64,000 nt of DNA, from the NCBI GenBank assembly GCA_036867785.1, contig CP145411.1:1736001-1800000 (forward strand), given 5' to 3'. The DNA comes from Plasmodiophora brassicae. Lineage: Eukaryota. Shown here one piece after another: positions 38,377 to 59,512 of the stretch (its first letter is position 1; every line of letters begins with the position of its first letter). The notes below the pieces were generated by a model, which was given only the letters and a program-made list of their open reading frames with translations, made no database searches and was not told where the DNA came from. The position numbers and the translations under genes are program-made.

Positions 38377-38796
<420 letters not shown>

Positions 38797-54988: not shown

Positions 54989-55405
54989 CAGCGCTCTACC
55001 TAGCATGGACACAGTACAGGAGCGTCCCATGTATTTATCGATGCCGTCAGCCCTTTTACCGATGCGCATCCGCGTCACATCCATCAGGCGTACGTTCGGC
55101 GCAGGCCCAGTTGAGGATAGTATCTGGGCAGGAGCCGCTGGAAGGCCCCCCTGGCCGCTGTGATGAGCAGCAGGCAGCACCCGGCACGGGTCGTCGTTCG
55201 TCACAGGGTATCGGACGCGCGTCGAGATCGGCGATTGGGCAATAATTCTCGATTCGCTCTCGAGGCCCACAGACGCCACACGCGACTCCAGAAGTACGGT
55301 CGAAACGTCGTCCGAGAGGCCCGCGCCTGGCTGCCACACTGTTCCAGACGTCGTTCGCGTGCCTGCCTCGGGAGAAGTCCCCCGTTGGTCCAGCGCGGGT
55401 GGGCG

Positions 55406-57354
55406 ATGCCCGGCAAGCAACGGTACCGGTTCCTGTTCCTCTGCGATGCGTTCAACTCCATGTGCCAGCGCGCCATGCTGCGCCTGGAGGCCCAGGGCCA
55501 CCAGGTCGTCGTGCACATCGCGCGGTCGCCCGCCGGCATGATCCAGGCGGCCGCGGTGCACGACCCGGACATCATCCTGTGCCCGTTCCTCACCAGGCGC
55601 ATCCCGTCCGACCTGTACCGGGACACGGCCCGCCCCTGCTGGTACGTCGACGGCGACCATCGCAGAGTGTGTCGGCTGACGGAAACGCTCCCCTCCGTTG
55701 TCGCGCAGGATCGTGCACCCGGGCATCGAAGGCGACCGCGGGATGTCCTCCCTGGACTGGGCTCTGCAGGGGCGGAGCCCCGTCTGGGGCGTCACCATCC
55801 TCCAGGCGGACGACGTGATGGACGCTGGACCGTATGCCATTCGCCACGTTCCGTTTGTCGTTCGACGTGACCCGGGTTGTTGTTCCTGGCGTAGGGTCTG
55901 GGCCACGACGACGTTCCCGGTTCGGCCCGGCGCCACCAAGTCGGGCACGTACCGTCGCGAGTGCGTCGACGCCGCCATGGCGTGCCTGGACGCCGCCCTG
56001 GCGTCGTTCGCGGGCGGCGGGCGCCCGCGGCCGGCAGCGCAGGACGGCCCGGGCCGGGCCCGACCGCGCATGACGCAGGCGGATCGCCGCATCGACTGGG
56101 ACGCCATGTCCGCCGACGAGATCGCCCGGCGCGTCGCGGCCGCCGACTCCCAGCCCGGCCTGGAAGCCGTCCTGCCGGGCGCGTCGGCGCCCGTGTCCCT
56201 GTTCAACGCGTGCGTCGCCCGCGACTGGCGCCCGTCGTCGTCGGGCCCCGCGTCCGGGTCGCTGATCGCGCTGCGCGACGACGCCGTCCTGATCGCCTGC
56301 GAGCGCGGCCGGTCCGCCGTCTGGATCGGGACGATGCGGGTCGGGCGCAACGGCATCAAGGTGCCGGCGCGCGACGCCCTGGCGGCGGTGACGCGCGACG
56401 ACGACGACGCGGTGACGCGGCCGTGTCGCCCGGTGCGGGCGTCGCCCGGCCTGTTCGTCGAGTTCGGCAGGGCGCCGGACGGGTTCCAGGAGGTGTACGC
56501 GTGGAGGCACCCGCGCGCCGACGACGTCGTGTTCCTGTGGTTCGACTTCTACAACGGCGCCATGTCGACCCGGCAGTGTCGTCGCCTGTGCCGCGCGCTC
56601 GACAATCTCCTCGACGGGACGTCGTCGCCGCCGCCGCGCGTCCTGGTCCTCATGGGCGGCCCCGGGTTCTTCTCCAACGGCATCAACCTGAACACGATCG
56701 AGGCGTCCGCCGACCCGGTCGCCGAGTCGGCGGACAACATCGTCGCCATCGACGACGTCGTCGAGCGCGTCCTGCACGCGACCGGGACCGTGACGGTGTC
56801 GGCCCTGATGGGCAACGCGGGCGCCGGCGGCGCCATGATGGCCATCGCCGCCGACCATGTCTGGGCGCACGCCAACTCGGTCCTGCTGCCGTCGTACGCC
56901 AACATGGCGCTGTTCGGCAGCGAGTACTGGACGTATTCGCTGCGGCGCCGGGTCGGCCCCGACCTGGCGCGCTCGCTGGCCCTGGCGGGGAGGCCCGTGT
57001 CCGCCCACGAGGCGCACCGCATCGGCCTCGTCGACCGCATCGTCAGCGACGACGCGCACGGGTTCGTCGACGCCGTTGCCGATCACGCCGGCGACCTGGC
57101 CGTCGACGTGGAGGCGTTCCTGCGGCGCAAGGCGGCAGCGGCGCCGGCGGAACAGCGACGCATGCGGTCAGTGAGCGCTGTCTAGGCGTGTGTGATGCTC
57201 CATCGGTGCCCGGCTGACCGGCCGCGCCACCCTACGCAGGCTGTGCCGGCGCCTGGAGCTGATGCACATGTACGACTGCTTCCGCAGCGACGAGTACGCC
57301 GCGCGCCGACGCGACTTCGTGTACAAGTCGGCGGCCATGCCCTGCCGCAAATGA
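55406..57354 (+). CDS. hypX: HypX/HoxX-like enzyme (formyltransferase domain + crotonase domain)
   Basis: FLCDAFNSMCQRA, PDIILCPFL, IVHPGIEGDRGMSSLDWA, WGVTILQADDVMDAGPVWA, FDFYNGAMST, FFSNGINLNTIE, GNAGAGG, SYANMALFGSEYWTYSL, RRDFVYK; three GT-AG introns. Confidence 0.92.
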
Positions 57355-57782
57355 CCGTGTAGTAAACAGGATCGTTCGTTGGCGACGCTCGGCGTTCAGT
57401 CCAGGCCGCACCGTTCGGTGCCCACAGTCGCTCACGATACCGTGATCCCGGGCCTCAGCTGTAGGATGGTAGCCGCGCCAGGGGCAGGCCAGTCCGGCCG
57501 CACATCGAAGTCTGGCCTGGCCTGGTCAGTTCTGCGCGACACGGCGCGCTTCGCACATTTCGAAGTGCGCGCCCGTCGTACCTGACTGACGAGCCAGGCC
57601 ATGCTCTCGATCGGCACGCCTTGCGTGACGCGGCAGCAGGCTGCGACGAACGGTCGCCATGTAGAAACGCATGCGCAACGTTCGAGAGCGTTCTGGATCG
57701 GTGCCGGCAAGCGCGCCGGCAATGCGGACGGGAGAATGGCAGGTGCCCCGGAGCATATACCGTAAGGCAAGCGCAGGGTGAC

Positions 57783-57965: not shown

Positions 57966-58275
57966 AAGGGGGGCGCTTGTCCAGGACGCGTTGAGTAAAC
58001 CAGAGTACTGATAGTTCGATACCGACGAATGAAACGTGGTCGGGTCGGGCTTCGCTGGCTAAAATTGGAAACACGCGATTAGTCGTCGCATCGATCTGCT
58101 TGACGTGGCCCGATCGCCGGATCGACCGCGACCGGAGCGATGGGCTTCAGTTCTAAGGGCGCCGTCCAGTTACTAGACCACCTCTAACGACGATATCTTA
58201 TACTGCCCCTTCCGAGCCGGAGAGCAGCCTCAGCCCATGGGCAGGCGGTTGCCGATATCGTGCACGCCGTCGGAA

Positions 58276-59512
58276 ATGACATCGCTTGTGGCGTTCCCCG
58301 CGTTCTTCGCCCTCGGCCTGTCCAACAATATCGGGTACGTCGTCGTCAGCGCGCTGGCGGACCCCATGATGAAGGAATTCGGAAAGCTCGACCTGATCGG
58401 GCTCGTCACGCTCGCCATGGGCATCGGGACCGTCCTCGTCTCAGGTACGTCGAGGCGCGCGCGCCCCCATGCCCCCCGGCGACATCCCTGACCGCATGTC
58501 GCGTAGCGTCGAACTTGTTCATGACGAGCCTGAGCATGAGCAGCCGCGTGGTGACCGCGCTGGCGTGCAGCGTGCTCGGCGCGCTGCTGCTGACGCTGAC
58601 GATCCAGGCCGTGCTGTCCGCATCGATCGTCGCCATCATTCTCATATCGTGCGCGTCGTCGTTCGGCGAGATCGCCATCCTGTCGTCGATGTCGCGGTTC
58701 CCCGACGGCAGCCTGGGCATGTGGACGGCGGGCACCGGCGCCGCCGGCATCCTCGGCACCGCCTTCGCGCTCCTCACGAAGAGCGCTGGCGCTGATCTCA
58801 GGTCGGTGATCGTCGGGCCGTCGTGCCCGACCCGTGCCTAACCGTGGCTGTCAGGACGCGCGTGTCGATCGGCCTGTTCCCAGCGGCGGCGCTCTTCGCG
58901 CTGTGCTACCCGCTGGCGAAGCGAAGCGCGGACCAGGACCCGGACGCGGCCCTGGCACACAAGATGCCGGCGCGCCTGACGACGACGCGCGTTGCGGGCG
59001 CCCTGCGTTCGGCCTGGGTCCACATCGGCAACGTCGCCTGGATGTATTTCGTGGTGGCCGCCATGCACGGCCTGCTGGCGTCCCGCTGCCAGGCCCTGGC
59101 GACATCCAGCGCGGGCAAGCAGCCGTCCTGGGCCGTCCAGCATTCGCTGGAGATCCTCATCCTCTGCATGCAGTCGGGCATCTTCGTCGCGCGGTCGTCG
59201 TTGTCGTTCGTGACGATTCGCCGGTTCTCGCTGATCCTGGTGCCGCTGACGGCCACCTTCGCCCTGTTCGTCGCGCACGTTCGCGCCCCGTTCATGCCGC
59301 TCGAGGCGCAGTTCGCCCTGATGGGCCTGACGGGCCTCCTGTCCGGGGCGACGTACGCCAACGCGCTGTACGATATGACAAAGAGGTACGACAACCCGAT
59401 TCCGATTCGGGATCAGCCGCTCTGCGTCACCCTGGCCGGGACGGGCGGCGCCCTGGCCGCCGTCCTGTCGTCCGTTCTCCAGGTCGTGGCTGGGTCCCAG
59501 GGCTGGCTCTGA
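58276..59512 (+). CDS. CLN3: CLN3/battenin family membrane protein
   Basis: FFALGLSNNIGYVVVSA, SSFGEIAILS, WTAGTGAAGILG, QSGIFVARSS, GLLSGATYAN; two introns. Confidence 0.85.

Follow-up and report, generated by a model that had tools for sequence, protein, structure and literature searches.

In bacteria such as Aquifex aeolicus (structure 6J0P), Cupriavidus necator and Rhizobium leguminosarum the protein HypX, also named HoxX, supplies the carbon monoxide (CO) ligand of O2-tolerant NiFe-hydrogenases. NiFe-hydrogenases are prokaryotic enzymes and we know of no HypC or HypD partner in eukaryotes, so that CO from a eukaryotic HypX cannot feed the NiFe cofactor. In eukaryotes, the enzyme accepted as the source of CO is heme oxygenase, which makes the same product but has an unrelated fold and a different substrate (heme) and cofactors, and is therefore a functional analogue only. 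Here we describe a gene at positions 55406–57354 of the forward strand of a 64-kb stretch of Plasmodiophora brassicae DNA (contig CP145411.1, positions 1,736,001 to 1,800,000; this whole stretch is called the window below). We consider it reasonably likely to be a nuclear gene for a hydrogenase-independent HypX which acts as a CO source and/or a one-carbon outlet. That HypX is intact in organisms which cannot possess a NiFe-hydrogenase points to a folate-tied source of CO as a second one beside heme breakdown, and animals, mosses and fungi that are tractable already offer candidate genes.

The best described HypX is that of A. aeolicus. According to the accessible text of the structure paper (PMC6802093), His74, Asp80 and Asp109 form its formyl-transfer triad, and Tyr416 and Glu426 are the likely bases in the decarbonylation of formyl-coenzyme A (formyl-CoA); Ralstonia mutants at the positions equivalent to the latter two are HypX-minus. 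The same text describes CoA as constitutively bound in the manner of a prosthetic group, with its 3'-phosphate tethered by Ser194, Gln195 and Asn306 and with further contacts to Gln15, Arg131, Arg9 and Arg542; the quadruple mutant R9A/Q15A/R131A/R542A keeps CoA binding. In vitro, HypX forms formyl-CoA from 10-formyl-tetrahydrofolate (10-formyl-THF) and releases CO, the formyl-CoA being enzyme-bound, as summarized in an excerpt of a 2025 review (PMC12134894). A related use of the same substrate is found in ALDH1L1, where the formyl group of 10-formyl-THF is passed to a phosphopantetheine thiol (PMC6802093, same text).

The Plasmodiophora protein resembles bacterial HypX in having three Pfam domains in the same order, a collinear alignment, identical His/Asp/Asp and Tyr/Glu residues and the tether for the CoA 3'-phosphate. 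It differs from it in that its gene is nuclear and intron-bearing, is unaccompanied by hyp or hydrogenase genes within the window and belongs to a separate clade with indels of its own. Also close to it are orphan bacterial HypX (Pseudomonas chlororaphis/koreensis group, Peribacillus huizhouensis, Agarilytica, Aliikangiella, Lysobacter, Marinomonas and a metagenome-assembled genome (MAG) of Acidimicrobiia), which keep the catalytic residues in genomes without NiFe large subunit and HypD. These genes are intronless, however, and several stand beside an MHYT gene, whereas MHYT was not found in the Plasmodiophora window. The N-terminal hydrolase domain of ALDH1L1 is homologous to HypX's N-terminal domain (E 7.7e-10 to 2.7e-6) and likewise frees THF, but the two enzymes part at the C-terminal end: in ALDH1L1 an aldehyde dehydrogenase produces CO2 and NADPH, in HypX a crotonase-fold decarbonylase produces CO.

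A HypX protein within a eukaryotic clade

The gene has four exons and three introns, and its spliced coding sequence of 1746 nt gives a protein of 581 amino acids (aa), every residue of which is identical to the NCBI protein P0001, named 'Formyl transferase C-terminal domain-containing protein [Plasmodiophora brassicae]' and encoded on a 1.86-Mb contig. A preliminary description of this DNA had proposed a full two-domain HypX with the motifs HPGIEGDRG, MDAG and SYANMALFGSEYWTY, and this was borne out: all three motifs are present in the translation together with the catalytic residues, and the Pfam domains Formyl_trans_N (residues 44–141), Formyl_trans_C (178–269) and ECH_1 (363–530) are found above their curated cut-offs. 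The best match among solved structures is A. aeolicus HypX (6j0p_A, E 4.6e-93, 315.9 bits, query 4–554 on chain 18–541), and the HypX structures (6j0p and variants) are followed by crotonases and then by the hydrolase domains of 10-formyl-THF dehydrogenases. Counted along the printed 6j0p alignment, in which the chain bears a 20-residue tag, the Aquifex residues His74, Asp80, Asp109, Tyr416 and Glu426 correspond to His82, Asp88, Asp117, Tyr454 and Glu463 of Plasmodiophora, all identical. These five positions are invariant in 20 of 20 sequences of an alignment called A1 (P0001 and 19 eukaryotic, bacterial and unnamed homologues) and in 17 of 17 of a second set that adds Euglena and fungal proteins. 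A loss of catalytic residues, which the preliminary description had named as a possible argument against its reading, was thus not seen in the alignment with the solved enzyme. From the CoA contacts Ser205, Gln206 and Asn340 (the 3'-phosphate tether) as well as Gln21 and Arg140 are retained. Moreover, of the 87 columns without variation among the other 19 A1 sequences P0001 retains 85, the number of deviations in those sequences being 0–4. The Plasmodiophora protein is apparently a constrained and working HypX, as judged from these alignments. With exon 3 as query, NCBIfam gave only generic enoyl-CoA hydratase models, all far under their cut-offs, and at E 1e-20 it holds no model even for bacterial HypX; there is therefore no curated HypX model to test against.

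Three GT-AG introns had been proposed, and all three do carry GT..AG borders as well as a CTGAC- or GTGAC-like branch site. Retention of intron 1 would shift the frame and lead to a stop at 55868–55870, and its excision rebuilds the stretch W-IVHPGIEGDRG as aligned with Aquifex HypX. Retention of intron 2 would put 21 extra residues into the conserved DAGPVWA stretch; a DNA-derived gene call (P0123) keeps this intron. The W-IVHPG and DAGPVWA stretches are uninterrupted in 19 of the 19 other A1 sequences and the removal of introns 1 and 2 rebuilds both of them. Two further database models of the gene (a 148-aa partial one and the 662-aa P0121) likewise splice out introns 1 and 2. The stretch 55406–57354 is contained in 20 public runs, and we aligned contigs from four of them (X3, X5, X9 and X12, from four studies), whose RNA nature is guessed and not on record. 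Intron 3 is absent from all four contigs, 73 nt being skipped at 57165/57239 with GT..AG ends, and contigs X5, X12 and X9 stop at 57384–57385, 30 nt past the stop codon, as a transcript would, while the X3 contig continues further. Intron 3 is confirmed by these transcript-like contigs. Introns 1 and 2 are predicted from homology and from the database gene models, and in this part the earlier proposal stands less firmly, as the contigs keep both of them (see below).

After the gene itself the top database matches are eukaryotic, with 39–48% identity (Ceratodon, Hypsibius, Chara, Bradysia, Calypogeia, Branchiostoma and Trichoplax), several of them under the name 'hydrogenase maturation factor HoxX-like'; bacterial matches come next with 40–46%. 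A transcript of Euglena mutabilis sits in the cluster of one near relative. Using the Trichoplax homologue as query, the Atlas returned a 'HoxX-like' cluster with Cnidaria as the most frequent group and a second cluster of 206 members, 97% of them Eukaryota, with Ascomycota as the most frequent. The latter cluster, together with HypX proteins of Glomeromycota and Tilletia from a search for longer proteins, agrees with the earlier remark that HoxX-like genes are annotated in fungi.

All reconstructed trees contain a eukaryotic clade. In a FastTree tree of 165 rows (120 matches and 45 bacterial loci) it holds 39 rows, namely all 15 named eukaryotes and 24 unnamed sequences, with a support of 100. 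In an IQ-TREE quick tree with LG+C20 from 52 chosen rows it holds 16 rows (SH-like approximate likelihood ratio test, SH-aLRT, 100), and in a second quick tree from 40 chosen rows it holds 29 rows (SH-aLRT 99), comprising animals, streptophytes, Euglena, Plasmodiophora and an unnamed HypX-FolD protein, and in this tree long branches on the bacterial side lead to the proteins of Glomeromycota and Tilletia. The clade has its own indels, one residue fewer between Tyr454 and Glu463 and a shortened loop ahead of the last helix. The preliminary description had suggested a bacterially derived enzyme, but an import specific to Plasmodiophora was not borne out by this phylogeny, which places the gene with animals, bryophytes, Chara and Euglena (99–100): the gene is not a private bacterial acquisition but a member of a eukaryotic HypX clade. 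Within the clade, Plasmodiophora joins the Chara and moss sequences with an SH-aLRT of 95 in both IQ-TREE runs, a position that is unresolved in FastTree; its branch is long (1.1–1.3) and its composition deviant. The topology of the clade is discordant with the species tree, as the tardigrade groups with Euglena mutabilis and the fly lies away from the other animals, and because of this departure transfers among eukaryotes or hidden paralogy are likely.

The sequences themselves are public under automatic names, and work on bacteria has established the family and its chemistry. Neither a hydrogenase-free eukaryotic clade of HypX nor what it does seems to have been studied before: we found no literature on eukaryotic HypX or on HypX beside MHYT, although subscription HypX studies (2016 PNAS, 2020 JACS) may mention homologues. 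Two papers with 'HypX' in a eukaryote context were set aside as irrelevant, one having a fungal 'hypX' as a typo for a hypothetical gene and the other a reference-list entry.

HypX without hydrogenase, its link to folate and the MHYT sensor

The hyp and hydrogenase genes that stand alongside a classical hypX are missing within the 64-kb window, as had been noted before: no such family was found among 45 long window open reading frames (ORFs) scanned with Pfam, which had been chosen from 94 passing a filter for the GC content at third codon positions (GC3) out of 196 with at least 130 aa, and seeds for HypD, the NiFe large subunit, FolD and MHYT gave no match in the six-frame ORFs of the window. 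In order to see this in context, we turn to the bacterial relatives. When one genome per prokaryote species was scanned with the alignment, at least 583 loci were obtained; 80 of them were kept, and the genomes of 45 of these (our own choice, with longer contigs) were searched. A match to PF00374 (NiFe large subunit) is absent from 17 of the 45 genomes; HypD is absent from all 17 too, and present in 8 of 8 hydrogenase-positive control genomes. The 17 are eleven Pseudomonas, Peribacillus huizhouensis, Agarilytica, Marinomonas, Lysobacter, Aliikangiella and an Acidimicrobiia MAG (loci and genomes in Table 1). As these bacterial genomes show, a place beside hyp or hydrogenase genes in a genome that encodes a NiFe-hydrogenase is a mark of the classical role and not of the enzyme. 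Among the 45 bacterial proteins the catalytic His, Asp, Asp and Glu are found in all 45 and Tyr in 43. The eleven HypX of fluorescent-group Pseudomonas form their own clade together with two Actinomycetota, and this orphan clade is the first bacterial-side branch beside the eukaryotes, with weak support for the joining branch (85, 52-row tree). The neighbours of the Pseudomonas orphan loci (ECF sigma/FecR/TonB receptor, LysR, STAND NTPase) did not point consistently to any function. With a sizeable share of its nearest bacterial relatives in hydrogenase-free genomes, bacterial HypX itself appears in a new light.

Of the 80 bacterial loci, 11 have hypX and a gene with an MHYT domain no more than about 2.5 kb apart, and Pfam confirms the domain in each of the 11. 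HypD and/or the NiFe large subunit, the classical setting, is found in the flanks of 32 of the 80 loci, and none of these is among the 11 with MHYT. The partner occurs as stand-alone MHYT, as MHYT-PAS-GGDEF-EAL and as MHYT-PAS-histidine kinase, and at least six lineages are represented among the pairs (Cellvibrionaceae, an unplaced gammaproteobacterium, Aliikangiella, Peribacillus, Streptomycetaceae and Methylococcales). In 4 of the 7 searched genomes concerned the MHYT protein adjacent to hypX is the only MHYT of the genome, and on the complete chromosome of Kitasatospora the pair is megabases away from the hydrogenase genes. A 2024 study demonstrated CO sensing, with copper, by MHYT in CoxC, and neither HypX nor HoxX occurs in the accessible text of that paper (PMC11347149). 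A self-made CO signal would be expected to show such a pair of HypX and MHYT apart from hydrogenase genes, and judged from gene order the pair looks like a module of CO producer and CO sensor. Its recurrence suggests that bacteria may produce CO for their own signalling.

A second connection leads to folate metabolism. FolD is the enzyme that makes 10-formyl-THF, and three of the five matches from the search for longer proteins are HypX fused to a FolD-type methylene-THF dehydrogenase/cyclohydrolase (PF00763 and PF02882). In P0149, an unnamed ENA record of the eukaryotic clade, the order is HypX-FolD (HypX 158–688, FolD 722–1013), and in the Glomeromycota Racocetra fulgida and Dentiscutata erythropus (P0150 and P0151) it is FolD-HypX; two domain orders imply two fusion events. 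The five catalytic residues are retained in all three fusions. P0150 also has an aminotransferase class-V part and may be a merged gene model.

Proposed reaction and alternative explanations

By analogy with the bacterial enzyme, the gene product would be a HypX-type N10-formyl-tetrahydrofolate decarbonylase. Its N-terminal formyltransferase domain (His82, Asp88, Asp117) would pass the formyl group of 10-formyl-THF to a tightly held CoA, which would then swing via an internal cavity to the C-terminal crotonase-fold domain. There Tyr454 and Glu463 would decarbonylate formyl-CoA to CO, with CoA and THF being regenerated, and the enzyme would act without a NiFe-hydrogenase or Hyp partners. At the level of the enzyme, a hydrogenase-independent formyl-THF decarbonylase yielding CO and THF is well backed by the sequence and seems rather probable to us, with the splicing of the gene as a main discount; substrate, CO release and physiological role we infer from sequence. 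As it has no presequence, the protein is probably cytosolic. The product of the eukaryotic HypX clade would most likely be an endogenous source of CO (signal or regulator) and/or an outlet of the one-carbon pool.

A signal and a one-carbon outlet both fit the data and we rate them about equal. In its wider form the first of them, which we put forward tentatively, says that many eukaryotes (placozoans, cnidarians, amphioxus, tardigrades, some insects, bryophytes, charophytes, euglenids, several fungi and Plasmodiophora) own a heme-independent CO synthase that would turn folate-bound one-carbon units into CO as a signal, mirroring the bacterial module of HypX and copper-dependent MHYT; in Plasmodiophora the enzyme would be cytosolic and its CO would also reach the host. 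The same chemistry could instead serve as a one-carbon overflow or THF-recycling valve, a counterpart of 10-formyl-THF dehydrogenase with CO as waste and not as signal, which is a serious possibility though short of likely. The nearest non-HypX structures of the N-terminal domain are indeed hydrolase domains of 10-formyl-THF dehydrogenase (4qpc, 1s3i and 7rlt; E 1e-9 to 1e-6), the FolD fusions in two orders tie HypX to the flux of the folate pool and the family is widespread among free-living eukaryotes. However, hydrogenase-free bacteria repeatedly pair hypX with a CO-sensor gene of variable output, which fits a producer-sensor pair, and toxic CO would be an odd route of THF recycling when hydrolysis to formate exists. 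CO could also be a diffusible effector of the parasite on the host root, as had been suggested earlier: P. brassicae lives as an obligate intracellular parasite of roots, CO requires no signal peptide and the protein lacks one, HypX is also present in the root-associated Glomeromycota and the sequence groups with streptophyte HypX in two trees (SH-aLRT 95). Yet the same clade is present in amphioxus, Trichoplax, tardigrade, fly, mosses, Chara and Euglena, and because it thus includes free-living animals and plants as well as Euglena, the gene did not arise for parasitism; furthermore the main contig form is incompletely spliced, and we found no relevant paper on P. brassicae with carbon monoxide or on HypX with eukaryotes. 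A host-directed role in clubroot is possible, without specific support and weakened by the occurrence of the family in free-living eukaryotes, and we regard it as unlikely. Quite improbable, finally, is an enzyme that halts at formyl-CoA or reverses the transfer, supplying or salvaging formyl-CoA without CO release. In its favour, nothing is lost of the formyl-transfer triad or of the CoA tether, and direct experimental results for both steps were not yet available to the authors of the structure paper according to its accessible text (PMC6802093). Against it, Tyr454 and Glu463 are invariant in every eukaryotic sequence examined and their Ralstonia counterparts are needed for HypX function, the constitutively bound CoA described in the same text argues against a release of free formyl-CoA, and the formation of CO via enzyme-bound formyl-CoA has been shown in vitro (PMC12134894, excerpt).

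Several observations weigh against a working, folate-tied HypX in Plasmodiophora. Introns 1 and 2 are kept in all four contigs, which are collinear with the genomic DNA from 55300 to 57165, and this main assembled form would cut the protein after 154 residues or restart it 3' of His82 and Asp88. In the protein, Aquifex Arg9, a contact of the CoA diphosphate, is replaced by Ala15 and Arg542 falls outside the aligned part, and the Trp399 and Pro470 columns, invariant in the other 19 A1 sequences, hold Ala and Arg in P0001. On the folate side, the FolD fusions are database gene models and could in part be merged models, and FolD is adjacent to hypX in none of the 80 bacterial loci. The contigs allow the explanation that the gene is mostly silent or non-productive in the sampled stages, with introns 1 and 2 kept and no full enzyme encoded: all four contigs, from four studies, are unspliced over 55300–57165, yet intron 3 is removed in every one of them. 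We think this rather unlikely, as the spliced reading frame is intact, 85 of the 87 family-invariant columns are retained, GC3 is 0.955 and thereby the highest among the long ORFs of the window, and introns 1 and 2 are removed in three independent database gene models. In addition, assembled contigs lose rare forms and may fuse overlapping transcripts of the upstream gene, and contigs from 4 of 20 runs were aligned; because of these properties of contigs we do not take the retention of introns 1 and 2 as a refutation of the productive HypX gene. Retention of these introns beside removal of intron 3 could be a case of intron detention, or the upstream TPR gene could read through and overlap.

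The preliminary description had regarded the gene as genuinely eukaryotic, and it is indeed extremely improbable that bacterial DNA contaminates the assembly here or that the gene was transferred from bacteria very recently. What speaks for such an origin is the GC content of the gene, which with 0.721 is the GC-richest 1.9 kb of the window (mean 0.607, standard deviation 0.049; only 2 of 621 sliding windows reach this value and both overlap the gene), and the existence of bacterial homologues with up to 40–46% identity. Other ORFs of the window attain a GC3 of 0.86–0.88, however, and for this reason we do not read the high GC as a recent transfer; an argument from GC alone was judged not decisive. 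The three GT..AG introns, one of them confirmed by contigs, the eukaryotic genes flanking both sides on a 1.86-Mb contig, and the nesting of the gene in the eukaryotic clade (SH-like or SH-aLRT support of 99–100 in three trees) with its shared indels all stand against it. Besides, a scan with the single protein over genome contigs of 185,579 prokaryote species gave 39 pattern matches with no relative among them, close or otherwise. To the extent these data allow, contamination and recent transfer are refuted, and the gene can be taken as a nuclear member of the eukaryotic HypX clade.

Gene features, neighbourhood and minor observations

The positions of the gene's features are collected in Table 1 together with those of the bacterial MHYT genes. 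An in-frame stretch of 81 codons upstream of the ATG at 55406 is most likely 5' untranslated region. GC by codon position is 0.68/0.61/0.68 in this stretch versus 0.65/0.47/0.97 in exon 1, and the GC3-rich codon signature starts at about 55376–55406. The ATG at 55163, the start of the 662-aa model P0121, was rejected since the stretch behind it does not carry the GC3 signature of the gene, and from the same lack of an extreme third-position bias we take 55406 as the start and an N-terminal targeting extension as absent. The extension in P0121 is Arg-rich and presequence-like, and one source name of P0121 is tagged '(mitochondrion)'. Other-frame and antisense ORFs over the gene gave no Pfam match and an Rfam search over the gene gave no match; with exons 1, 2 and 4 singly the Pfam search also remained without match, these exons being too short.

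Table 1. Positions of the gene's features and of selected neighbours in the window, of MHYT genes in bacterial hypX loci, and sequences behind counts in the text
Feature	Sequence	Position	Strand	Details
Exon 1	window	55406..55641	+	ATG at 55406; codons 1–78 and two bases of Trp79; formyltransferase domain begins
Intron 1	window	55642..55708	+	67 nt, GTACGT..CAG; CTGAC branch-like site
Exon 2	window	55709..55831	+	formyl-transfer triad His82 (55716–55718), Asp88 (55734–55736), Asp117 (55821–55823)
Intron 2	window	55832..55894	+	63 nt, GTATGC..TAG; in frame, stop-free
Exon 3	window	55895..57166	+	remaining formyltransferase domain, Formyl_trans_C, linker, crotonase-fold domain
Exon 3 key residues	window	Tyr454 (56895–56897), Glu463 (56922–56924)	+	also Arg140, Ser205/Gln206, Asn340
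Intron 3	window	57167..57239	+	73 nt, GTCAGT..CAG
Exon 4	window	57240..57354	+	conserved C-terminal helix (ELxxM..F..Y..R..FVYK); TGA stop 57352–57354
Short 3' untranslated stretch	window	57355..57385	+	up to where three of four contigs stop
Upstream in-frame stretch	window	55163..55405	+	81 codons; N-terminal extension in the 662-aa model P0121
CLN3 (battenin) homologue	window	58188–58838 and 58796–59509		downstream neighbour, over two frames
Core histone gene	window	38380–38796	-	farther away
MHYT gene	L001	9164–9964
MHYT gene	L005	8998–9858
MHYT gene	L007	8758–9531
MHYT gene	L036	7905–8672
MHYT gene	L070	8322–9035
MHYT gene	L012	11733–14156
MHYT gene	L062	11793–12809
MHYT gene	L066	11809–12846
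MHYT gene	L067	11781–12797
MHYT gene	L008	12693–14633
MHYT gene	L028	7945–9975
hypX loci in the 17 genomes without NiFe large subunit	L001, L012, L014, L022, L024, L029-L031, L034, L039, L042, L046, L057, L058, L070, L077, L078
The 17 genomes	G001, G006, G007, G011, G013, G016-G019, G021, G023, G026, G030, G031, G039, G043, G044
HypX proteins with N-terminal extension	P0004, P0011, P0032, P0033, P0036, P0040, P0044, P0045, P0007, P0002, P0017			see text

The Pfam families of the neighbouring genes are eukaryotic and include core histone, eukaryotic aspartyl protease, RabGAP-TBC, ubiquitin-conjugating enzyme, protein kinases and CLN3, and further neighbours are a DNA polymerase alpha N-terminus and a TPR protein directly upstream of the gene. 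The CLN3 homologue downstream is presumably split by an intron. Many animal and streptophyte HypX carry N-terminal extensions of 21–117 residues which are basic, rich in Ser/Thr and presequence-like, and no such extension is present in Plasmodiophora, Bradysia and several unnamed members. On the bacterial side, some HypX are fused to a hemerythrin domain (PF01814; P0046, P0060 and P0112 as well as L003 and L027 with ORFs of 742 and 720 aa). These cluster with the HypX of Methylomonas, which is itself longer than usual, and the added domain may be an O2-sensing add-on.

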